Shown here in pieces: positions 6,001 to 61,089 of a stretch of DNA of 64,000 nucleotides; the first letter of the stretch is position 1, and every line of letters begins with the position of its first letter. The stretch lies in IMG/VR virus record IMGVR_UViG_3300029812_000326, positions 32,001 to 96,000 of that record. One strand, given 5' to 3'. The DNA comes from a virus. A model generated the notes under the pieces. That model ran no database searches, was not told the DNA's origin, and saw only the letters and a list, made by a program, of their open reading frames with translations. The position numbers were made by a program, and so were the translations under genes.

Positions 6001-9000
6001 ATTATCGCAAAATGCGTAATGCAAAATGTTACAATTTGAAAAAATTGCCGCATCCAAAATGGATTAAAACAAAAGATTTAAATCCAGGAGATTATGTTGC
6101 TTATCCGATTCCACAATATGAGGAAAAAAATATTATTATTGATATGGCAAAATATACTAAGTTCAAATACACTGATAGATGGATTTATCCAAAACATTGC
6201 CATCCGGAAATATATGAATATTTTTTATCCAATCCCTGCCCATATAATATTCAACAATTGGCTATAGAATTCAATGTTGAAGGAAGCACGTTGGATGCTA
6301 TTCGAGATCATATCAAAGCAAAACGCTACGCAATCCGGTATCCAAGATACATAGAATTTGATGAAGATTTAGCTGCACTTTGCGGATATTATGCTGCAGA
6401 AGGTTGGGCAGGAAACAATGGGGAAATTGGATTTGCGCTACATGTAAAAGAAAAATCTACAATTGTAAAATATTTGGATCATATTTTTAAAAAATTCATA
6501 AATCGAAGTGGAGAAATATATCAATATGAAAGAAATGGAAATGGAATTGACTATCGAATAGGTTCTGGTTATCTTGCTGATTTTTTGGGACAAATCGGGC
6601 ATGAAGCACATGAAAAGCATATTCCCAAAGAATTTTTTCATTTGCATAAATCATATTTAATTCCATTAATTAAAGCATATTTTGAGGGCGATGGTTGTTA
6701 TTTTTCAGATGGAAAACGCGCAAGATTTTCTGCAAAATCAGTTAGTTTACAATTATTATATGATATTAGAAATATATTATTATCCTGGGGCATAATAAGC
6801 AATATAAATTACGATCCTGGCGGCCGGACGTCAAAAATTGGAAATCAAATTATCCATGCTGGGATTTCATATAGTTTAAATATTAATTCAGAAAATGCAT
6901 TAAAATTGGCAAAATTGTTCCAAATTAAATTAAAATGCAATTCTAAAATGCTACATTCGTATTCATTCATCTACGATGGATATTTATGTATGCGCGTTAA
7001 TAATAAGCAAAAAGTTTCATGTGACCAAGTCATAGGATTTGAAATTGAAAACGATTCTTTTTGTGTATTAGGAATTGCAACTCATAATACTCACATCAAA
7101 GGGGGTTTGATTTTGCTTCCATCTCGCGCTCACGAAAAAATGTATCATGTGAAGCATAATTTTCCTATTGATTTAGAATATTTTGGATATGAACCCGGAG
7201 AGGCCGCAGGAAGACTATTGAAATTGATTAGACCGGAAAGAGAAGAAGAATATCATTATTCATTTATTAAAGAATTAATTCAAAAGCAATTATTGATGAA
7301 TAGGCAACTGCTATCCAAAGACGTGCCACTTTTTAATCCTTGGTCAAAGATTGAAGGGCATGTTGATGCTATTATTATGAATCAATCTGGAATTCCAGAA
7401 CTGATGCAAATAAAAGCAACTACTGCTGAAAAACTTGGATTCATGCAGCAGCCAAAACCGGCGCACGTATCTCAGCTCAATTTTGCTATGAGACAAATGA
7501 AGAAAAGATATGGACAAATACTTTATGTTGCGTCAGATAATCCAGAATTAAGTAAATCTTTTTATATAGAATATAATTCGGAACGATTTCGCAATGATAT
7601 GTCAAGAATAAATGAAGCTCGGGAATTGGCATCAGATATGTTACTCAAAGGCATTGGGCAAGTTGGAGAATCCTATTCCTATCCTGATAGATTACAAATT
7701 TTAGCCAATGTATCTCCGTGGGCTCCGGAATATAAAAAAGTTTTGAAGCAATGTAGATTGTTAAAAAGCCATGGATTACTGGATGAAGAAGATCAGGTTA
7801 AAGTAGACGAAGCCCGTAGGCAACATGATGCGATTATGAGGAAATTTGATTTTTATCCTCATCGATTTAGCCATGGTAAATGGCTTACTCCTGACCCAAC
7901 CTATAATTTGATGTCTCAGAATGAAAATATTAAAACTGCTGCAAAATATAATATTATTGAAAGATTAATGGGCGCAGCTTATGAACGATTATTGGAATTT
8001 GATATCCCGGTTGTCCATTCTAAATTGCTTCCATATTATACACCAGAACAAATGTACGAGAGACAAATTGGAGGCAGTTTCAGTGGGCAGTGGTCCAGAC
8101 CTATCCATGATTATATAAAACCCTGGTGGCATAGTTTTCTCTTATCAACGAATCCAGTTGCATCGGCGATTAAACTTGGATTTGCTGGTGGAGTATCTGC
8201 AGGCCCCCCCGGTGCCGCAGTTGGTTTGGGTGCGGGATTATTATATGGTGCTGGAAGAAGTGTCGCTGGTCCAGGAACTTGGGTTCCGAAAGAGGTCAGA
8301 AAAACCCGAGAAATCGATGAATATTTTGATGCTTTGGAATATATAAAAAATCGTCAATTATATGAACAAACCGGCGACCCGGAATATCTTAAGCGATCAA
8401 GAGAAACAATTTATGGTGTCACTCCTATGAGCACACCAGCCGAATTTTATAGATCGGTTCCGTATATGGAACGTCCATTTTTCTGGTCATTTGCTTCCAT
8501 ACAGGATAAAATTCAACAGGATAGAATTAAACAGCGGATTTCGCCAACCATGAGAAAACTTTTGGAGCACTATTGGTCTGGAGAGAAAAAATTTACTAAT
8601 CCAATGATAGAGGATTATAATCCAAATTTCCGAATGCCAGCGGAGGATTGGATGGGATGGAGAGAGGATATTCCATTGGAGGATATACAACTTAAAACTG
8701 TCAAAATGGAAGGGCTAGATTGTTTCATTCCTACGCAAAAATTATTGACACTAAATGGTCCAATCGAAATACAAAATGTTGAGATGGACACTGAATTAGT
8801 GAATGCCCAGGGAAAGTTGAAAACCCCAATCTGTATATTCAGAAAATTTTATAAAGGCGAAATGATTAAATTAGATTTTAAAGGAACGTATTTTGATTTA
8901 ACCGGAACAAAAACTCACGAATTGGAGATAGCCAAAAAATGCAGAAAATTTGTATTTAAAAAACAAAAACTTCAAGATGTGCGGAAATACAATAGATTAA

Positions 9001-9982: not shown

Positions 9983-12900
9983 ATGCCAATTATTTACGAT
10001 CAGGAAGAGAATCAATTTCGCGATAGATTCGGATATTTATTTCCAACTGTTTTATTAGGTGGTGGGTTCATGGCCTGGAAAAAATATTATGGATCTCCAC
10101 AACTTGGAAGGAAATTTTCACCCCGCGCATTCATAGGGTTTGTCAAAGATCTAAGCTCCCAAGATTATTTAAGAAAATATCTTACAAGGCCGGATAAGCC
10201 AGAGCTTCCTCTTCAGCACAGACTAGTAGAAACTGCGGTAGAATATGAGAAAAGTAAATCGGTAATAGAATTTCTTACCGATGCTGATCTGAAAACTGTT
10301 CGTGAAATTGGTAAAGCCTTGCCAACTCCAATTAAAGTGGAAGAAATTGAATTTAAACGTCAGGTAATTAGACAATTCAATCCAGTAACCTATGATTTGG
10401 TAAGGAATAATTTAGAAAAGACACAAGAAGTATTTAATGAATTGCTCGAAAATGTTGAAGATTCTAAACATTTACAAAGTATTCTTAAACAACAACTTGA
10501 GCGATATAGATTTAGAAAATCCCATTTGCTTATATATTCGAAATTTTCAGAAATTATTAGTCCAGAAATGCTGAAAAGCGAAGCTGAGCAGACGGTTTTA
10601 ATGAGACAACTATGGGATACGCAAAAGAAACAAACTCAGGAAGCCAGAAGACTTGCACAAATACTTCAAAGAGAATCCCCGGAAACTATAGTAAATTTGA
10701 AAATTCCAAAAGTTTTAGAACGCGTTGATCCCGCCATTCTGATAGATGAAAGACGAGCGAGACTTCAGCCTGCTGGCAAAACAATCAATGATTCAGGTAT
10801 TAAATTGTCTTATACAGGTTATAAATCATTTCTTCAAACGCTCAGAAGAGCAAGAGTTGATTCCAAAGCTATTGCTGCAATTGAAACAATTGATCCAATA
10901 CTAAAGCAGCATTTAAATGAGCTTGCTCATACAAAAGCCCGAATTACATATGCATTACAAGATAATGCTTTTAATTTGCGAGCTGTAATCAAATTGTCTA
11001 TTCAAGTCAAAGAAGAAGGCAAAAGAGAAACCATTAACTTGAAGATCCCGCTCACTCGTGGTGGAAGATTAAGAGTCAATGGAACGCGTTGGATTCCTCA
11101 AAGATATAAAGGCATCAAACCACTCATTCCTGAAATAGAACGAATTGAATCTGATATTTATGAATCGATGATCCGTAATTTGAATAAAAGATTTAAGAAT
11201 GAAGTTTGGCATAGAATAATGGCTGGAGATGCCCGAGGTGGAGAACGAGCCATCAATACTTTAATTAAAGAGCCGATTGATGAAAGATTAATCATGGAGG
11301 TTGGATGTCCAGTACATGATTTCATTGAACAAAATGTAATTCAGGATGCTAAGCTTGGCTATTTATCTCCTACTCGCGGATTTAAAAATGAAGATGAAAG
11401 ACGTGCTGTGAGTGACCGATTTAAAAAAATGCAGAAACTTAAATTACTTCTGATGGAAGGCGATGGAAAATTAAAATTACCAAATAGGTATGCATTTATA
11501 GATTTTGAAACATTTGGAACAAAAACGAATTACCTGCCGCATCAGGTAACCATTGGAATAATTGAAAATGGCGCAGTTGTTGATTGGTATACAGGAAAAG
11601 TTGATCCTCGAAGTATTAATGCCAATTATGCTTTCCCGGAAATTGATTTGAAACTTTCATTCAAAGGAAAAACAAGAGAGCAGGTTATGAAAGAATTTGA
11701 TGAAATGGGGCAACCCATTAGTAAAATTCGAAAAGAGTTGGAGGATTTCCTGCGGAAAAATGCCAAAGGAGGAAAGCTTCCGGTTGCGGCTTGGAGTGCT
11801 AGTTTTGATGTGGATAGGGTAATGGGCCAGCAATTCTTAGGAGCCAAAGCCTATTTGGGAGAAACCTGGGATCCGATGGATCTCCAAAAAGCTATTGATC
11901 CAGATGTCCAAGCTTCAGTTTCTCTTAGATCTGTTGGACAATCGCGGAAAATTTTCATTCCGACATCTTCAAAGAAAGATTTGACTCTTAATAAGAAAGT
12001 TATTGAATCATTTAAAAAAGATCATAAACTAATGGCTATTTTGAAAGACAAAGATCCTGGATTTTATAGCAAATTGGCAAAAGCGATTTCTGAAAAACAA
12101 ATACGAAATCTAGTGATGCATGAAGCATCAATTGATGTACTTATGGCAAATAAAGTTTTTCAAGACATTGCGAAGGATATTAATTTACATTCTTCGGTAG
12201 TGATGCGCGATTTAAATGCAATGTTATTAGCATATCATCGCGCATTAACTCGCTCGATAAATCCAATAGACGTTAATCATTGGACTACCAGAGCATTGGG
12301 ACATAACTTCCCATCTCTTTCTCCTGCTCAGATTTTGCAAGGTAAATTTACGAACTTTGACATCAGAGATTTAGCTCCGCTTACGAATTTGGGCTTGGAT
12401 CCAACAAGACCATTTTATCAGCAATGGAACTCCGCGCGTCTGATTACCACCCATGTTCCTGACTTGGTCACGAAGACATATAAAAAGATCGCGAGTAGGC
12501 GCGGAGAAATTTTCAAATCGATGGATATATTAACAATTTTTAATCCATTAACTGCGGAAAATGCTGGCTTGATAGATTTTCAGGCCGCAGATGAAATGGC
12601 AATTAAAATGGTATCGAAATTGATTAGAATCCCTCACACTGGTAATTTGAAACTCATACCGGAACTCAAGGAGGCGTTTGAGCAGATAAAATCAGCAAAG
12701 ACTCCGAAAGATCGCGAAATTGTATTATCGAAATTGAGGCAGAAAATGGCGAAAGCCTATCAGAAGGGATCCCGGTTTAAAGAATGGCTGCCAGGATATA
12801 CTTTACTTGGAGAAGCGGAAGGATTTACATTTGATACTTCGACTCCATTAATGTCAGCGATTGAAAATATTGAATATAATAATGAAAATAGAGAAATAGC

Positions 12901-15900
12901 TATACGTCTTCAAACTGCCAGTTGTCCTGAAAAATATGGGCATCCAATGAAAATTTTTGCATATCCATATAAAGGAATGTTAACTCCAATAGAAGGATTA
13001 AGATCGATTACTTGGGTTGATGCCGTTCTTCGTAAAGATCTTGCAAAACGCGGCAGAATGTCAGTCATGTTAGGCCAAATTCAAAGATTGACTAGGAATT
13101 TCCAAACCATTCATTCGAAATTAACTCCATCCCAAACATTTCAATTTTTTGAAACAGTTAAAATTTTTGTGAATAAAATAAATTCAATGGGTGGTATTAA
13201 ATTAGATTGGCAAGTCAATAAAGGTAAACTTCAATTTATAGACGAAATAACGGGAAAAGAATGGCAAAAATTGGATCTCGGAAAAATTGAAAAAAATTGG
13301 TTACAATTTTCCGAAGGCGAATGGGTTAGATTTATGAAAGAATATTCCCAAAAAATCCGACATATGATGATTTCATTTGGGATTAAATATTCCAGACATG
13401 ATCCTCGCTTGCCTTATTGGACTCAAGGTCAACTTGAATCGATGCTATCAACTGAATGGGGTAGACGATATCCTAAAAAACTAGCATTTGCTGATTTGTC
13501 CCGAGCTGAACAAAATGTATTTCGGGAAAAAATAGAAGTAGAAATGCACGAACAATTATCAAAAAGTGAATTCTCCAAATTTTTTACAAAAGCAGAATTA
13601 GAACGTTGGAAATCCGGAACTTTAATGGAAGGCCATCTTTCTTTGATTCAACTATTCGGCGGTTCTTGGGGAATATTAGAAGTTACTCCGGCATCTAGAG
13701 CATATGAAGCCGGAGAATTATATGCTAAAGGTGCCGATATAAAAATCCCCAGCTTGGATGAATTAGTTGTGTCCGGACCAATAGCTCAAAGAATTGCTCG
13801 CACATTCACTGGCGAACAGCGCGATATGATGAATTATATGTCAAACATCCAGCCCCTTTTGAGATATGGAATCTTGCCTGAATCTCATTATCCAATTATA
13901 AAAGCCTCAGAAATAAATCTTGATCCTATGACAACTCATTTAGGATTTAAAGAGGAAATTGGAATCATAGAAGATAAATCTTTCAGAATTAAATGCGTTG
14001 AAACTGGGGAAATTTTTAATTCTTTGGAAGAAGTTCCAGACCGCTATTTGAAGCAATATACATTAAGACCCATGGGTATGAATGCATATATGCACCCAAA
14101 AACCTTGGAATCGATGTATGGACAACAACCAACTATAGTTGAATTCAATATAGGGAAAAAGAAGGTTTACCTTCCCAGACCGGCATTATCATTTATCAGA
14201 GGTGCGCCCGCCAGAGTCACGAAAAGCGGAGATCCTTATACCATCATTGGAAAAGAGATTCAAACATTTAAAAATCTATTGATTGCGGCATCAGATTACG
14301 AGAAAATTAAAGGGGACGAAGCAAAAGCCGCATTTGAAAGAAAGTTCTTTTCACGGGCTGAAGACTATAAAAATATGATATTAACGGATAAAAATGCATA
14401 TATAAAAATGACCAAACCAACGATTCCTGGAGTTCAAGGAAAGATTTCCATGGCATTTGCCCCCGGAATGGCTAAAGCGTTGGGATTGCCGCAAGATATG
14501 TTTAGCCATATAACTACAGGATTTGGGATACAGGGAGTATCTGTAAAGTCGATGGGCGAAGAATATTTTAATAAAGCCATGGATGTCCATCAAATAAAGG
14601 AAGGATCGAATGTTGGAAAATATAGAGGCGCCACAGGAATGGTTTATCCGAATAAAATGGCGTTTAGGGAAGCTCTTATTGAAGGTGAAGAATTACTTGC
14701 GGGAACTATTATCAGAACCCCCGCAGAAAACCGATTCGCATTTTTTGATACATTGATCACTGTTAAAAAAGATCAAGCAGCTGGAATGCGCCTCCAACTT
14801 AGAGAAGCATTAGCAACCCACTGTGATTATGATGGGGATATAGGGCGCCTAGTATTTGCCGAGTTTTCTCCCCAGGAGCAGGAGCAAGCTTTGAAAGATC
14901 TCATAAATAAGCAACACGTTGATAGAAAAGCACATGCAACATTAGCTGAAAGGATCAAAAAGCTTCAAGCAAATGTGCTTGAATATGAAACCGGCAAAGA
15001 CGTCGCAACCAAAAAACAGATTGTCAAGGAAATTGAACAAATTCAAGAACTTGAAAAAACAATGAACGTTAATGTCTATGGTCAAGGTATTTGGGTAAGG
15101 GAAGCTAAACCAAAAGCGATTCCAAAAGAAATTAAATTAGGAATTGGCGATGAAATGAGATTTCGAAAAATGAATTTGCATCAGTTTATGAAAGAATTGC
15201 CATCTATTGATCTTCCCGAAAGATTGATCAAATTACCGGGTGAAGAATTGGAACAACATCTTTCCAATATGCTTACGAAAACTGCTACAGCCTACTCGTA
15301 TAGAAAAGCAATGACCATGAGATCAGCAACTAAGCTATTTGGTGGAAAATTAACTGAACAATATTTGGACTTATATAATGAATTGGCCGGAAAAGTTACT
15401 GCATTCAAAAAAGTTCCATATGAAAAAGCTGAGCAAATAACTAGAGCTCTATTGGAACCAGAAGCTGCAGAATCGAAAAAAATTATGGGAGAAGTATTAA
15501 ATAGGGATGCGGAAGAACTTTGGCCACAATTTAAAGAATGGCATTCTGCACTAAATCGTGCCATGATGAGAAAGGAAGTTAATGAATTAATCAGTTCTGG
15601 AATGAAACGCGCCCCTATTACGGGTGGACAGTTGGCATTATGGGGTCCAAGTGCAGAAATCCCTGCTGCAGGAAAGACTCGCGCAATTTTAGACTTTTGG
15701 GGTAAAGAAAAGTTTCTTGATAGCTTTAAACGTCAAGGGAAAAAAGGCGGCATTGCAATTGCGTTGGCCGCGCTTGTCGCTCCGATTTTCCTGTCGCACG
15801 ATAATATATATGATAAAAAAGGATATCCAATAATTCCAACGAATTTCAACGTTGCTCAGCCAATATTCCCAGCCCCTATTCACATAATACCAAACGATCC

Positions 15901-16301: not shown

Positions 16302-16805
16302 ATGCCATATAAAGATCCAAAAAAACGAAAAGAATATCAGTAGGAATATTTACAAAAGAATAAAGAAAAATTAAAAATTCGCAGGCAGAAATATTATCAA
16401 GAAAATAAAGAAAAAATTAAAAAATATCTTCAAGAACATAAGGAAAGTGTTAAAAAACTTAAATTGAAATATATACGAAATCATCCGCATCGTGTTTGGG
16501 CAACGCATACCTTTAATGGTCATAAACACCGAAGATTTATAATTAATATTTCTATCGACGAACTTGAAGAAATTGCTAAAAATATAACTCATTGCCCTAT
16601 ATGTAATAGTGAATTCAAATGGAAACAAGAAAAACAATGTGATAATACACCATCTTTGGATCGGATTAATAATGGAAATAATATTGATAAAAATTCAGTT
16701 TGGATCATATGCAGTAAATGTAATCGAACAAAATCGAATAGGACTCTTAAAGAATTTATAAATTACTGTGAATTGGTTTCGAAAAAGGACTTTAATATCG
16801 AATAA
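16302..16805 (+). pseudogene. HNH-like (His-Me/endonuclease VII-type) homing endonuclease with in-frame TAG at codon 14
   Basis: MPYKDPKKRKEYQ*EYLQKNKE... is in frame with the 16464 ORF; CPIC...PSLDRINN...N...ICSKCNRTK. Confidence 0.75.
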
Positions 16806-23578: not shown

Positions 23579-24052
23579 ATGAGCGAAACCGATTTAATGT
23601 TATCTTATGAAGGTGGAGGAATTATCACAGACGACGGAGATTTAAAGTTGGTGCAAGATTTAGATGCTTTATCAAGAGAAGTTAGCAGAATAGTGCGAAC
23701 AGTTAATCCTGCATGGAAAATATATTCTAATATTGGGGCTGGAATAGGAGAATTCGTTGGGGAACCAAATACTCGTGGAACGGCTTTAGAAATCACAAAA
23801 CGCCTGAATTATGTGTTAAATCAAAATCAAATAGCTTATCCCGGACGCCTATTTGCCCGAGTGGTCCCATCTGGAGATGAATCATTATTGATTTTTATTT
23901 TCTTAAAAGATAGTCGGGGGACGCGGCTTCTCGATAAGGAAGTGTTTAATTTTATAGATGGCATAGCCGGACATATTTATGATCCCGCTGAAGTTAAAGA
24001 AATTGTACCTAATATTCGACATTCAGAACCAACGAATCCATATCTTAGGTAA
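23579..24052 (+). CDS. gp25/gpW-like baseplate (sheath initiator) protein
   Basis: DGDLKLV...NIGAGIGEFVGEPNT pattern, 157 aa, directly before J-like gene. Confidence 0.7.
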   Translation: MSETDLMLSYEGGGIITDDGDLKLVQDLDALSREVSRIVRTVNPAWKIYSNIGAGIGEFVGEPNTRGTALEITKRLNYVLNQNQIAYPGRLFARVVPSGDESLLIFIFLKDSRGTRLLDKEVFNFIDGIAGHIYDPAEVKEIVPNIRHSEPTNPYLR

Positions 24053-24056
24053 TATT

Positions 24057-24129
24057 GCGGAATTCAATAGCGAATGTCTAACCATTATGTGTGCATTGTA
24101 ATTGTTCGAAAAATAACAAAGTTTTATAG
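24057..24129 (+). pseudogene. Remnant of HNH endonuclease C-terminus
   Basis: Reads NV*PLCVHCNCSKNNKVL*; shares GCGGAATTCA and TGCATTGTAATT with the HNH at 30861-30911. Confidence 0.75.
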
Positions 24130-24135
24130 AAAGGA

Positions 24136-25380
24136 GTGATCACTTTGAGATTCTTAAGCAAAAGCAAAGACCAATTGATGCAAGAATCCAAAAATTATTT
24201 GATTGAAAATACCGAACTTAGAAATTTCAAACCGGGCAGTGTAATTCGATCAATTTTGGAAACTATAAATGGTCATATTGCGGAACAATATGAAATTATG
24301 ACAATGAATTTATTGCAAACATATGTAACGACTGCAGTTGGAGATGCACTTGATGAAATTGGAACTCTATTTGGATTAGTTAGAAATGAATCTCAACGGG
24401 CGATTGACACCTCTCATGCTAATTTTAGGTTTTATATTGATACATTGACTGGATACACCGCACAAACATTAGCTTCTGAACAATATATTGCAAATCAAAA
24501 TTCTGAGATTCCAGAAGTGTATGTTCATGAAAATAGTTTCACGATTCCAGCAGGAACTACAATATTTGCTGGTGATATTACTTACAAAACTACTGAAGAT
24601 GCGACGTTTTCCATGTCAACTACCGAAGTATATGTGCCCATTGTGGCGTCTGGATATGGACCATCTTTTAATATTCCGGCTTATCAATTGAAATCCTATA
24701 CATTGGGCGCCGAATTTTCCATAATTTCAAAATATTTTCATTGCGAAAATAGTCAAACTATAAGCTCTGGCAAATTCCAAGAAAGTGATGATGAACTTAG
24801 ATATAGGATAATTCATGCCCATGTGGATAGTGCTAAAGCCAATGAAATAAGTATACGTTTGGCAGCCTTATCTATTCCGGGTGTGATTGATATTGTCCTT
24901 CGAGAATATGCCGCTGGCATTGGAACATTTGCTGTTCATGTTATTGCGGAATCTCCTATTCCAAATGCTGGTTTGTTAAGCGCAGTCCAACAAGCAGTTG
25001 ATTCCACAAGAGCATTTGGAATTAAAGCTTTGGTTCAATATCCCGATTATAAAGGATTCGAAGGAACATTCAAATTGAGATTTATTCTTGAAACAACTGC
25101 GGATGAAAAAGTTTTAATTATGCAACAAGTTAAGATTGCCGCCGAATTATATATAAATAATTTGGGATTCGGCGGAGAATTTGTAGCTAACGAATTGATC
25201 CAAAGAATCATGGAAATCAATAATAAAATCAAAGATGTTTCTATTGTTACGTTTGGGGCTGGGAACTACAATCCCATAACTGGAATTAACGAAGATTACA
25301 ATCCGTTGATTTTTATGAACCAGCAAGTCGCGCAGGACGAAATGTGCATCGCTACCCCCGGAGGTATAGTAATTTGTTAA
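24136..25380 (+). CDS. Baseplate J-like wedge protein
   Basis: TAVGDALDEIG..FGLVR, IPAGT, ESDDELRYRI, ALSIPGV motifs. Confidence 0.85.
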   Translation: MITLRFLSKSKDQLMQESKNYLIENTELRNFKPGSVIRSILETINGHIAEQYEIMTMNLLQTYVTTAVGDALDEIGTLFGLVRNESQRAIDTSHANFRFYIDTLTGYTAQTLASEQYIANQNSEIPEVYVHENSFTIPAGTTIFAGDITYKTTEDATFSMSTTEVYVPIVASGYGPSFNIPAYQLKSYTLGAEFSIISKYFHCENSQTISSGKFQESDDELRYRIIHAHVDSAKANEISIRLAALSIPGVIDIVLREYAAGIGTFAVHVIAESPIPNAGLLSAVQQAVDSTRAFGIKALVQYPDYKGFEGTFKLRFILETTADEKVLIMQQVKIAAELYINNLGFGGEFVANELIQRIMEINNKIKDVSIVTFGAGNYNPITGINEDYNPLIFMNQQVAQDEMCIATPGGIVIC

Positions 25381-27622: not shown

Positions 27623-28369
27623 ATGAAGATGAAAAAATGGTCTCAAAAGTATGGTGATTGTTGTATTGAATGTGGAACTACAGAAATTCCCCATAAAGGG
27701 CATGGATTGTGTAAAAAATACTGGGAAAAAAATTATCACAAAAAATATGATATTGAACATAAAGATGCTCTGCAAAAATATAGACACAATTATTATAAAC
27801 GAAACAGAAATAAAATTCTTATACGAAATAAACTTCGAGAAGCAAAAAATAAAGCTGCGCTTAAAATATATAACAAGATATATAAAAAAAAGTATTATCA
27901 AAATAATAAAACTAAATGTGAAAAATATCGTCGAAAATATTATCAGGAACATAAAAGAAAAATCATAGAAAATACTTTGCAGTATTATAATGATAACAAG
28001 AATCAAATGGATATAAAAAGAAAAAAATACCGACAATCATTAAATGGCAAAAGTATTTGTAAAATAACCAAACGAAAGTATAGGGCCCGGAAAAAGGGTG
28101 TTGATTTTTGGACCAAAGAGATGACTATTCGTTGGTGGTGGATGTTGGACGCAACTGAGGGATATTGTCCAATGTGTGGGAATCCATTTGATAATGGGGA
28201 ACATAAATTTACAATGGATCATATATTACCATTGAATTTAGTAGATAAATTAGGAAAAACTGAAGCAATTAAATTAGGCGCAATTCATCACATAGATAAT
28301 GTTCAAGTATTATGCATGAAATGCAATAGCAAAAAACATACGAAAATTCCAATATCAAAAAAGCAATGA
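27623..28369 (+). CDS. Freestanding HNH homing endonuclease (KWSxKY family)
   Basis: KKWSQKY..CIECG..GHGLC; CPMCG..TMDHILP...HHIDNVQVLCMKCNSKK. Confidence 0.9.
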   Translation: MKMKKWSQKYGDCCIECGTTEIPHKGHGLCKKYWEKNYHKKYDIEHKDALQKYRHNYYKRNRNKILIRNKLREAKNKAALKIYNKIYKKKYYQNNKTKCEKYRRKYYQEHKRKIIENTLQYYNDNKNQMDIKRKKYRQSLNGKSICKITKRKYRARKKGVDFWTKEMTIRWWWMLDATEGYCPMCGNPFDNGEHKFTMDHILPLNLVDKLGKTEAIKLGAIHHIDNVQVLCMKCNSKKHTKIPISKKQ

Positions 28370-58459: not shown

Positions 58460-58780
58460 TTACTTTTGATGTAATATTAATCGCCGTTTTAACCAAGATA
58501 TTACGGCGCTTCTGAAGCTTCTCAATATCTTTTTCTCATTAGTATGTTTTTTATCAGATTCAATAAGAACTTTTTTCATAATATTTTCAAGATCTAAACT
58601 GATATCTCGGGACGAACAGTAATCAAGCATTACAGAAATATCAATGCATTCTTCTTCAAGTTGCCTTATGAATAATGTAGTATCGGCGCTTGTATCTGGG
58701 AGCATTCCGCCAAGGAGTCTGACATATTTATGAATGTATTCGTTATATTTTAAGATTGGCTCGCCCGCTTCTTTACACAT
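58460..58780 (-). CDS. Hypothetical protein
   Basis: 106-aa ORF in the minus-strand block. Confidence 0.45.
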   Translation of the reverse strand: MCKEAGEPILKYNEYIHKYVRLLGGMLPDTSADTTLFIRQLEEECIDISVMLDYCSSRDISLDLENIMKKVLIESDKKHTNEKKILRSFRSAVISWLKRRLILHQK

Positions 58781-61089
58781 TCTTCGTGTGCTTTTTTATA
58801 GATCTCTGAATATTTCCGTCCTAAAATTTTCCAAGATCTAGTTTTTTGATATTCTTTAACTTTATCCAATTCTTTATTGTAAATTTGTTGGTTTTCGTAT
58901 AATTTTGTTATCTCTTCTGCCAAAGCTATAGAATTAAAATTACCATGAGGGAAATTCTTAACATCATAAAATGCTGGTGAACTGCTTGTTATTATTGGAG
59001 TTCCTGCGCCCAGACATGTGCATGCTGCGCCAGAAACTCCTTGACATTTCATAATGGCATACATAAATAAACCAATATGAGATCTGGCACATAATTCTGA
59101 TACTTCTTGATCAGATAGGAAATTTTCGATAAGTTTTACATTTGTATTCTTTGACATTGATCTTATATGTTCCAAATATTTTTGTTGCGTTCCCGATTTA
59201 TCTCCTGGATGAACTGAAGTTTGAAGAATAATTTCATGTGGGAATTTTAAATATTTATCGCAATCAACGACCAATTCAAATCCTTTTGATGGATGAGCAA
59301 ATCCTGAGCTAATGATTGTGAACTTGGAAAATCTTTCTTTGTCAGATTTATATGAATCGCAACCATGTGGGATCACCATCACCTTCTTTCTAAATGAAGG
59401 CCATTGTTCTAATATATCGGCAAAGAATTGATTATGCACAATTGGAATAGAGTGTTTAGACCATTCTATTATCTCTTCAAAATATTGGATATTTTGGCTG
59501 TCAGTTGAAGTTGGACATGTGTGATGAGTAATAAAAATCGGTATTCCCATATCGTGCATTGCAGATATAAATGCTCTAAATCTAGGTTTATTCGCCCAAT
59601 ATAATGCCCATTCATTCTGGATGTGAATTACATTGATTCCTTCTTTTCGAATTATTTCATACGTATTTATAAGTTCGCTGGGATTTTTGGACCAACATGG
59701 AATGGCTTTAAGTGTACTCTGTTCTTTTGGATCCATTGTATCAGCCGCTAATATGATAGGATTAGGTTCGACGTGTTGATATGAATTTCTACTATAGCGT
59801 GCGATTCCACATCGCTCATTCCATGTTGTCATCACTCCGACCTTAAGTTCTTCAGGAACTTTGTATTTGGGGAATTTTTTCTTTTCAAGAATCATAGGAG
59901 AAACAAAGGCAGTATTTTTCGAAGTATCAATTTGTTCTAAAAATTCATCCCAACGTTCATATTGTTTTTCCCAAGTATGATTTTTGGCGAATTCAATTCC
60001 ACTCTTTGAATACTGGTTTCTCAATTTTTCATTTTTGTATAATTTATATAATTTTTTCGCAGCATATTGGACATCGGGTATTTGCATCAATTGTCCTGTT
60101 ATTATCTCGGGATACTTCGCTTTAACCTTGACAGGTTCACCAAATTGATATGCATATTCTTTAAACGAATTAGCATTTGTAAATACCATTGGCACACCAC
60201 ATGCTGCACTTTCTAAAGCAGTGATACCGAATCCTTCTCGTGAAGACAGCAAAATTTGAACGTCGGCAGCATTATAGATTAAATTTACCTGTTCGGGCGT
60301 AATACCATGACCAACTTTAAGATTTGATAATACAGCTTTATCGTTTAAATCATATCGATTAACAAATTCTTTCAAATCATATCCGCGAGCTTCGTGGAAA
60401 TTACAATGAAAATATATTTTTGAGTTTGGAATATTTGCCAATTTGAATGCTTCCATTGCTCCACATGGGTTTTTTCTCATCCCATTTCGACTGATAAATA
60501 ACACAACAAATGCATTTTCGTCACCAACCAATTGTTTTTTGAGTTGTTTCTTCGTTATTTCGCCCAATGGCTTAAATATATCTGGTTCATATCCCGGATA
60601 GATTACGGTTTTCACCAGATCATGACCACAAAGTTTTCGAATTTCGTCTTTACAGAATTTTGTTTGACCAACAACGTGATTGAATTCTTCCATTGTTCGA
60701 ATCCAATCAATAGTTTCGAATGGGGTTCGCATTATTTTGGGAGATCCTTCACTATCTATTGGACTATACCATATTGATTGAAATGAATTTCTCCCTTTGA
60801 ATTTTGAAATATAATAAACCATCCAAAGATCTCCAGTTGTCCACACAATATCAGGTCTGAATTCTTCAATCACTTTTGGAAACAGTTTAAGACCCCATTT
60901 ATCTCTTTGATCGGTGGCATTATAAACCTTAAATGGCATTTTTTCCATGTCTCCTCGGGCCCACCAACCCATGTATTGAATCTCATGTCCTTGTTCATGC
61001 CAATGAGTAGCTAGATGTCGTCCAATGGTACCATATCCACTGGTGAGCTGTGGTGCGTCTGTTATCATTAAAATTTTATGTTTTTTCAT
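58750..61089 (-). CDS. Tandem two-domain GT4-like glycosyltransferase
   Basis: Domain 1: TSGYG, RKN, EGFGITALESAACGVP. Domain 2: VGVMTTWNERCGIARYS, SKG, SGA...GTPIITS. Confidence 0.88.
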   Translation of the reverse strand: MKKHKILMITDAPQLTSGYGTIGRHLATHWHEQGHEIQYMGWWARGDMEKMPFKVYNATDQRDKWGLKLFPKVIEEFRPDIVWTTGDLWMVYYISKFKGRNSFQSIWYSPIDSEGSPKIMRTPFETIDWIRTMEEFNHVVGQTKFCKDEIRKLCGHDLVKTVIYPGYEPDIFKPLGEITKKQLKKQLVGDENAFVVLFISRNGMRKNPCGAMEAFKLANIPNSKIYFHCNFHEARGYDLKEFVNRYDLNDKAVLSNLKVGHGITPEQVNLIYNAADVQILLSSREGFGITALESAACGVPMVFTNANSFKEYAYQFGEPVKVKAKYPEIITGQLMQIPDVQYAAKKLYKLYKNEKLRNQYSKSGIEFAKNHTWEKQYERWDEFLEQIDTSKNTAFVSPMILEKKKFPKYKVPEELKVGVMTTWNERCGIARYSRNSYQHVEPNPIILAADTMDPKEQSTLKAIPCWSKNPSELINTYEIIRKEGINVIHIQNEWALYWANKPRFRAFISAMHDMGIPIFITHHTCPTSTDSQNIQYFEEIIEWSKHSIPIVHNQFFADILEQWPSFRKKVMVIPHGCDSYKSDKERFSKFTIISSGFAHPSKGFELVVDCDKYLKFPHEIILQTSVHPGDKSGTQQKYLEHIRSMSKNTNVKLIENFLSDQEVSELCARSHIGLFMYAIMKCQGVSGAACTCLGAGTPIITSSSPAFYDVKNFPHGNFNSIALAEEITKLYENQQIYNKELDKVKEYQKTRSWKILGRKYSEIYKKAHEECVKKRASQS

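Follow-up and report, generated by a model that had tools for sequence, protein, structure and literature searches.

A conserved DEDDh exonuclease domain inside a putative single-chain two-barrel RNA polymerase encoded in the tail module of an uncultured phage

A giant protein encoded among the tail genes of an uncultured phage contains a DEDDh-type 3'-5' exonuclease domain, which is very probably catalytically complete, within a chain that is itself likely to be a two-barrel RNA polymerase (RNAP). The DNA that was analysed (the window, 64,000 nucleotides in length) consists of bases 32001-96000 of the 108,870-bp IMG/VR record IMGVR_UViG_3300029812_000326, and the protein is the product of the second of three giant open reading frames (ORF1, ORF2, and ORF3). 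The record is that of a contractile-tailed phage. Genes for the large terminase, portal, protease, major head protein, and tail sheath lie upstream of the window, the three giant ORFs come after the sheath gene, and a gp25-like sheath initiator, Baseplate_J, and tail-fibre genes follow them; at the far end of the record are genes for a primase-helicase and for a DNA polymerase that has an exonuclease region of its own. Our literature search found no report of a DEDD domain fused to a two-barrel RNAP, in agreement with the first-pass annotation of this sequence, which had named no characterised enzyme of such architecture.

Results

ORF2 contains a predicted DEDDh exonuclease domain

The IDFET (Exo I), WSASFD (Exo II), HEASID (Exo III), and DYDGD motifs all lie in the one frame of ORF2 (Table 1). 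The three Exo motifs are where the first-pass annotation had put them, and its call of an intact DEDDh exonuclease agrees with the motifs, the predicted fold, and the conservation described below.

Evidence from sequence profiles for a DEDD domain is consistent but marginal. PF16473 (Rv2179c-like 3'-5' exoribonuclease) scored 23.6-26.4 bits against a curated cut-off of 27, with an E value of 8.6e-6 for the domain alone, and matched four of the six exonuclease-domain segments and four of the five full-length family members. In a six-frame scan of the 108,870-bp record, the sole match to this profile was at window positions 11492-11815 (E 2.9e-7, 26.4 bits). PHROG 192, annotated as "DNA polymerase exonuclease subunit", matched ORF2 with an E value of 7.7e-6. 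A profile of the domain searched against the PDB gave the exonuclease domain of PolC (2p1j, E 0.026) as the best sequence match and also found 3'hExo (E 0.93). Alignment to E. coli DnaQ with hhalign (E 0.0019) placed Exo I and Exo II in register, with WSASFD aligned to NAAFD. PF00929 (RNase_T) had no match in the record.

An AlphaFold2 (AF2) model was built from an 8-row alignment covering residues 495-1694 (1200 residues); a single-sequence fold of the domain gave a predicted local distance difference test score (pLDDT) of only 34. The mean pLDDT of the AF2 model was 47 overall, and its first ~240 residues were usable, with blocks at pLDDT 50-86. The modelled domain has the order beta1-beta2-beta3-helices-beta4-helix-beta5-helices, in which D507 and E509 are on predicted beta-1 (model E8-17), D609 is at the junction where beta-4 passes into a helix (model 105-116), and H713 and D718 begin the domain's final predicted helix (model H220-241). 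Exo II and Exo III are 104 residues apart, compared to ~60 residues in E. coli epsilon, and the insert between them is helical in the model at a lower pLDDT of 36-58.

Only DEDD exonucleases were among the top 50 matches when this model was compared to the PDB with Foldseek (E values from 1e-4; template modelling scores normalised to the target of 0.56-0.61). These matches include the exonuclease domain of S. aureus DinG, Cas2-DnaQ, PolC-exo, ExoI, 3'hExo, and T4 DexA, and further REXO2/Orn, ExoX, epsilon, QIP, and TREX. The best structural matches in BFVD are stand-alone phage exonucleases. The modelled domain has an RNase H-like alpha/beta fold, and the AF2 model and the Foldseek matches indicate that the motifs come together in a DEDD arrangement of this fold, as far as a predicted structure can tell. 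All in silico features place the domain in the DEDDh superfamily, with no placement in a subfamily. Thus, we conclude from the motifs, the predicted fold, and the conservation that ORF2 residues ~496-736 are very probably a catalytically complete DEDDh 3'-5' exonuclease.

The exonuclease domain is an ancestral part of a rare protein family

Full-length relatives of 2000-2055 amino acids (aa) share 88, 84, 30, 29, and 26% identity with the ORF2 protein, and IMG/VR and JGI contigs provided the loci L001, L002, L004, and L005 at 88, 84, 30, and 29%, respectively. A filter-free HMMER scan with query residues 470-1669 against 1.84 billion representative proteins recovered three full-length clusters (85, 33, and 30% identity in that search) and two fragments. 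Further IMG/VR scans queried with P0004 and P0005 added only one fragment, word-index searches returned close relatives only, and no relatives were found by tblastn against 50,697 phage records or in the 185,579 species genomes scanned. The family is very rare, with about six metagenomic contigs and no cultured member.

The exonuclease domain occupies the same position in every full-length relative, and the fragment P0006 (41% identity) extends from inside the domain into the downstream sequence. Neither a free-standing copy of the domain nor a form of the protein that lacks it was found among the 1.84 billion representatives. All five catalytic positions are retained in relatives at 26-41% identity, where the acidic residue of Exo II is D or E. 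In Exo I, residues I506, D507, F508, and E509 are invariant in all full-length relatives. In Exo II, F608 is invariant; the acidic residue at 609 is Asp for P0006 and members of the window clade, whereas L004, L005, and P0005 carry Glu. The Exo III pattern H-x-A-x-x-D-V-x-x-x-N is likewise invariant (H713, A715, D718, V719, and N723). The most conserved blocks of ORF2 are DxDGD and Exo I, whose identities to the distant clades are 0.43 and 0.40, respectively. Among three close relatives, the ratio of nonsynonymous to synonymous substitution rates (dN/dS) of the domain is 0.04-0.08, which is the same as that of the rest of the chain, and dN/dS is 0.04-0.10 along the whole length of ORF2.

We conclude that the exonuclease domain is an ancestral, in-frame part of the ORF2 protein and is under purifying selection. 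The first-pass annotation had left room for a chimera; because independent metagenome contigs show the fusion in the same gene neighbourhood and dN/dS is low, the fusion is neither an assembly chimera nor a decayed domain, and it is present in every homolog found.

Motif sites and genomic context point to a probable two-barrel RNA polymerase

Two-barrel RNAPs are defined by one barrel that carries a DxDxD motif and another that supplies two basic residues (PMC7824862), and ORF2 has a candidate site for each. Residues I1577, R1578, P1580, E1582, H1613, D1615, D1617, G1618, and D1619 are invariant in the family. The distance from R-x-P to the first Asp of H-x-D-x-DGD is 37 residues, compared to 35 in E. 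coli beta', and the hydrophobic pattern around R-x-P and DxDGD resembles that of E. coli beta', P23-45 gp96, and phi14:2 gp66. An invariant P-x-K-x6-K (P988, K990, and K997), located ~620 residues upstream of DxDGD, was likened to the beta motif GDKxAxRHGxKG. The L004 version of this site, KFFAGTHKGV, resembles the E. coli beta motif GDKMAGRHGNKGV, in a match that is short and insignificant alone. In a language-model search of the ESM Atlas, the nearest named clusters carry PF05183 (RdRP) at scores of 0.76-0.77, a level that the search tool rates as leads only, and residues 1200-1780 found only a viral cluster without a name (score 0.75).

Known divergent phage RNAPs were recognised from similarly sparse evidence. 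It was a DFDGD motif, in a sequence otherwise devoid of detectable similarity, that revealed the virion RNAP of P23-45 inside the tape measure protein (PMC10770324), and the crAss-like gp66 has about 1600 residues without detectable homologs (bioRxiv 10.1101/2020.03.07.982082). By their authors' accounts, gp96 and gp66 also fail the test of profile similarity (PMC10770324; bioRxiv 10.1101/2020.03.07.982082). The motif sites and the genomic context together suggest that the ORF2 chain is probably a two-barrel RNAP. The exonuclease domain is N-terminal of the candidate motifs, but it does not directly adjoin them, as it ends at residue ~736 and the motifs are at ~990 and 1615; and the assignment of the chain as an RNAP is backed by two invariant motif sites and the genomic context, but not by confirmation of a double-psi beta-barrel from profiles or fold.

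Discussion

A possible role on RNA 3' ends in cis

We propose that the ORF2 protein would be a single-chain, two-barrel RNAP-like enzyme that is co-delivered with the phage DNA and would exit the virion along with it, in the manner of the tape-measure-fused RNAP of P23-45 and the crAss-like gp66. Exit from the virion is suggested by the location of the gene between the sheath and baseplate genes, the conserved synteny, a C-terminal hydrophobic segment, and the analogy to gp96 and gp66. The exonuclease would act in cis for the polymerase on RNA 3' ends, either excising ends that are misincorporated or backtracked or disposing of short abortive transcripts. It would thereby take the place of Gre/TFIIS-type factors that a stand-alone injected enzyme cannot recruit. 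We regard the chances as about even that ORF2 encodes an injected single-chain two-barrel RNAP-like enzyme with an exonuclease acting in cis on RNA 3' ends. That it is the first transcriptase with a dedicated built-in nuclease for proofreading or 3'-end editing, in which the fused DEDDh domain excises RNA 3' ends, is a more tentative claim that we consider somewhat unlikely to hold.

DEDDh enzymes require a free 3'-OH, so the candidate substrates are the 3' ends of nascent transcripts, of short abortive RNAs, and of the entering DNA, as well as host nucleic acids. RNA 3' ends in cis are favoured because the domain was never found apart from the polymerase-like chain. RNA is also favoured, if weakly, because exoribonucleases (Rv2179c-like, Orn/REXO2, and ERI1-3) provide both the best family match and the leading structural neighbours.

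Several results weigh against parts of this interpretation. Comparisons of the family with phi14:2 gp66, E. coli beta' and beta, residues 1-1200 of P23-45 gp96, and SPbeta YonO by hhalign each gave a probability of <1%, and hmmsearch --max with the family hidden Markov model was negative for gp66, beta', beta, and gp96 1-1200. Pfam scans at E values up to 10 and six-frame scans with PF00623 (Rpb1_2) and PF05183 (RdRP) gave no match, and phmmer and family-profile searches of the PDB returned no RNAP. In the AF2 model, residues 737-1694 are mostly at pLDDT <50, with about 26 at DxDGD. For the exonuclease domain, the PF16473 score falls 1 bit below the curated cut-off, and Exo II has Glu instead of Asp in two clades. 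The margin in Z score of RNA-acting over DNA-acting DEDDh enzymes is ~1-2, near the 1-unit tie margin and too small to decide between the substrates. Packaging in the virion is argued from gene position only, and the few early genes do not obviously need high transcription fidelity.

Other searches were uninformative. A six-frame scan with PF00940 (T7-type RNA_pol) gave no match, but its control also matched nowhere. No RNAP was listed by Foldseek (PDB and BFVD) or by two VIA-align runs, whose lists were filled by the exonuclease domain; because the model is unreliable outside this domain, the absence of RNAP structural matches says nothing about the fold of the polymerase part.

Alternative interpretations

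The nuclease could be a co-delivered independent weapon that attacks nucleic acids with free 3' ends, whether of the host or of defence systems, and is uncoupled from polymerisation. Fusion to an ejected protein would then serve only for early entry into the cell, and the targets could include host RNA, primers, or the DNA or RNA of defence systems. Stand-alone DEDDh exonucleases are common in phages and provided the best BFVD matches. T4 DexA and Cap18, the latter associated with the cyclic-oligonucleotide-based antiphage signalling system (CBASS), are among the structural neighbours, and a nuclease-like region in ORF1 suggests a cargo of several enzymes. Nevertheless, we judge this possibility to be unlikely, given that the domain is fixed internally, and not at a terminus, in all lineages, that the conservation of Exo I nearly equals that of DxDGD (identities to the distant clades of 0.40 and 0.43, respectively), and that the 1.84 billion representatives include neither a free-standing domain nor an exonuclease-less protein. 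It is decidedly unlikely that the exonuclease instead acts on DNA, by trimming or resecting the 3' end of the entering linear genome or of a nick to create a single-stranded template or start site. This idea presumes a polymerase that is unable to open duplex DNA, and in its favour gp66 accepts single-stranded or denatured DNA as a template in vitro and does not transcribe duplex DNA (bioRxiv 10.1101/2020.03.07.982082). Moreover, epsilon, TREX, ExoI, ExoX, and DinG-exo match the domain almost as well as RNases do. However, the geometry of resecting the incoming end for a template, which the first-pass annotation had entertained, is awkward: the strand that survives 3'-5' resection is the 5'-ended one, and an RNAP reading it 3'-5' would move outward to the terminus, a polarity that is poor for inward early transcription. 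In addition, a DNA 3' exonuclease arriving with a linear genome would endanger that genome, and the Cas4/RecB-type region that PHROG matches indicate in ORF1 appears better suited to making a 3' overhang; speculatively, its polarity would be the more suitable one if it is a 5'-3' nuclease.

The remaining alternatives concern the chain rather than the nuclease. All profile and fold tests for an RNAP were negative or uninformative, and the gene is located where tape-measure and ejection proteins sit, so the host chain might not be a polymerase at all. In that case, DxDGD and K...K would serve another or a structural role in a tail-lumen or ejection protein that carries a nuclease. We think this quite unlikely, since H-x-D-x-DGD and R-x-P at the canonical distance are invariant across relatives at 26-30% identity, and by a rough estimate considerably fewer than 1 in 1000 proteins of comparable length would have the pairing by chance. 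The beta-like KF(F)AGxHKG site precedes these motifs, which is the order that a single-chain enzyme should show, and the accepted virion RNAPs gp66 and gp96 are likewise detectable by this motif only. A two-barrel DNA polymerase or primase like PolD with a DnaQ-type proofreader, another option of the first-pass annotation, is highly improbable. Among known enzymes, a polymerase and a 3'-5' DEDD exonuclease in one chain are the hallmark of proofreading DNA polymerases, and the best PDB sequence match is PolC-exo; but the phage already has replication enzymes, namely a primase-helicase and a DNA polymerase that includes an exonuclease region, which makes this assignment unlikely, and ORF2 is in the tail module and not in the replication module. 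The DP1 subunit of PolD is an Mre11-like phosphoesterase and not a DEDD enzyme. PolD demonstrates that two-barrel cores are able to copy DNA, and its exonuclease DP1 is a separate subunit (PMC4996933).

Comparison to known systems

P23-45 gp96 (PMC10770324) resembles the ORF2 protein in being a giant protein of the tail module in which the RNAP is recognisable essentially only through DxDGD, and in its presumed role in pre-early transcription on entry. Like gp96, the ORF2 system includes a metallopeptidase and hydrophobic segments, which are found here in the neighbouring ORF3 and the ORF2 C-terminus. Unlike ORF2, gp96 has no reported exonuclease domain, and a nuclease is not mentioned in PMC10770324. 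The two proteins have no detectable sequence similarity, and in contrast to gp96 the module here is distributed among three proteins of ~2000 aa, and the phage is contractile-tailed. As a separate observation, ORF1-3 together recall the domain content of the single 5002-aa tape measure protein of P23-45. The gp66 protein of phi14:2 (PDB 6VR4; bioRxiv 10.1101/2020.03.07.982082) is also a single chain of ~2000-2200 aa that contains RNAP motifs amid ~1600 otherwise unassignable residues, and it is delivered from the virion. It differs in having DFDID where ORF2 has DxDGD, in that no nuclease domain is described for it and a nuclease goes unmentioned in its paper, and in its origin from a podovirus-like Crassvirales genome, whereas ORF2 is from a myovirus; the hhalign probability between gp66 and the ORF2 family is 0.2%.

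The ORF2 domain shares Exo I-III and the His general base with DEDDh exonucleases (Orn/REXO2, ERI1-3 (3'hExo), RNase T, Pol III epsilon, PolC-exo, TREX1/2, and Rv2179c). However, identity to these enzymes is 9-19%, and there are ~45 extra residues between Exo II and Exo III. Exo II of the ORF2 family has an aromatic residue (W, F, or Y) where the known enzymes usually have His, in addition to the Glu in place of Asp in two clades, and the domain lies within a much longer chain of 2015 aa, at residue ~500. Functional parallels to the fusion are provided by proofreading DNA polymerases such as PolC and by nidovirus nsp14 ExoN with nsp12; in the latter case, the partner is a right-hand RNA-dependent RNA polymerase (RdRp), the exonuclease is a separate protein in a complex, and the viruses are eukaryotic RNA viruses. 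S. aureus DinG (8zef and 9ii8) has an N-terminal DEDDh exonuclease fused to a superfamily 2 helicase, but it is a cellular repair protein. In eukaryotic RNA interference, DEDDh nucleases occur alongside two-barrel RdRPs (ERI-1 with RRF-3; QIP in Neurospora), none of which are fused.

To our knowledge, every known two-barrel RNAP corrects or rescues 3' ends with its own active site, assisted by factors of the Gre/TFIIS type. DNA polymerases have dedicated DEDD proofreaders, as do nidovirus RNA replicases, in which the proofreader is a separate subunit. If the proposed function is correct, a DnaQ-type domain within a two-barrel polymerase-like chain would be a third solution to 3'-end correction, and ORF2 would offer a one-protein system for the role of a dedicated 3' nuclease in transcription, including fidelity, backtrack rescue, and the clearing of abortive RNAs. 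It would also be another independent case of a phage RNAP-like enzyme in a tail or ejection module. Both parts are of known kinds; what would be new is an accessory catalytic domain (DEDDh) on a single-chain virion RNAP-like protein. If the chain turns out not to be a polymerase, ORF2 would nevertheless encode an unusual nuclease that is ejected as cargo. The small size of the family noted above limits how far the biological significance extends.

Gene neighbourhood and other features

The order ORF1, ORF2, ORF3, 192-aa ORF, gp25-like gene, and baseplate J is retained in the 30%-identity clade. Coordinates of the features discussed are collected in Table 1.

Table 1. Features of ORF2 and of the surrounding genome. 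Positions are those of the window unless a contig handle is given.
Feature	Position	Strand	Remarks
ORF2 (P0001), 2015 aa	9983..16030	+	Single open frame
Predicted DEDDh (DnaQ-fold) exonuclease domain, residues ~496-736	11468..12190	+	
Exo I, IDFET, residue 506	11498..11512	+	D507, E509
Exo II, WSASFD, residue 604	11792..11809	+	D609
Insertion between Exo II and Exo III	11855..12082	+	~45 extra residues, mostly helical in the model
Exo III, HEASID, residue 713	12119..12136	+	H713 (the "h" of DEDDh), D718
Candidate beta-type barrel motif, P-M-K-I-F-A-Y-P-Y-K-G	12944..12976	+	K990, K997
Candidate beta'-type segment, I-I-R-T-P ... H-C-D-Y-D-G-D	14708..14839	+	R1578, P1580, D1615, D1617, D1619
DYDGD, residue 1615	14825-14839	+	
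C-terminal hydrophobic segment, possible membrane anchor	15746..15808	+	Kyte-Doolittle
ORF1, upstream neighbour, 3615 aa	1..9980 (start 868 nt before the window, G000:C1:31133)	+	Inteins, nuclease-like region
ORF1 nuclease-like region, residues 2389-2510 (from ATG at 108)	~7272-7637	+	PHROG matches
113-aa ORF between ORF2 and ORF3	16464-16805		Weak zinc-ribbon and HNH matches, E 0.004-0.06
ORF3, downstream neighbour, 2044 aa	16808..22942	+	N-terminal Peptidase_M15_3, Pfam E 6.9e-10
gp25-like gene and Baseplate_J	23579-25380		After ORF3
Free-standing HNH endonuclease gene	27623-28369		Within the tail/baseplate block; Pfam HNH E 1.1e-7
779-aa protein, glycosyltransferase match at residues 3-387	58750-61089	-	phrog_2170 E 5.1e-37
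DNA polymerase	L008:7819-11016 = G000:C1:102819-106016	-	phrog_262 E 1.1e-34

The hydrophobic segment of the polymerase-like protein is conserved ~75-95 residues before the C-terminus; in ORF2 and at the corresponding place in L002, L004, and L005, its 19-residue Kyte-Doolittle mean is 1.6 or higher. Its sequence suggests that it may be a membrane anchor used after ejection.

ORF1 matches Intein_splicing (E 4.5e-26) and LAGLIDADG_3 (E 5e-39) in Pfam. Residues 3198-3535 (~337 residues) are absent from the ORF1 orthologs in L004 and L005, implying that at least the last ORF1 intein is missing there, and the C-terminal part of ORF1 is kept upstream of the ORF2 homolog in both loci. The nuclease-like region matches phrog_1706 ("CRISPR/Cas system associated", Cas4-like, E 4.9e-9) and phrog_2506 ("exonuclease", E 6e-4), and a Pfam scan of the region gave no match. 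This region may be a second nuclease, located in the protein that adjoins the polymerase-like one.

Near its C-terminus, ORF3 has a large match to the "endolysin" PHROG phrog_20474 (E 8.6e-59). ORF3 directly precedes the baseplate genes, and its orthologs are downstream of the ORF2 homolog in L004 and L005; it may be a tape-measure or cell-wall-piercing protein. The 113-aa ORF may encode a small mobile endonuclease, as judged from its weak matches, and the ORF at its position in L004 is 227 aa long and unrelated by BLASTP.

CheckV scores the whole record as 53% complete, and IMG/VR classes it as "provirus". This call may be a trimming artefact on a piece of a larger, possibly jumbo, lytic phage. 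In the protein database, the ORF2 protein is placed on a 130,853-bp contig. Residues 639-828 of the DNA polymerase are an endonuclease-like stretch (phrog_4645, E 5.2e-9), which may be an intein or an inserted homing endonuclease. The gene for the 779-aa glycosyltransferase-like protein is on the opposite strand and adjoins the replication genes.

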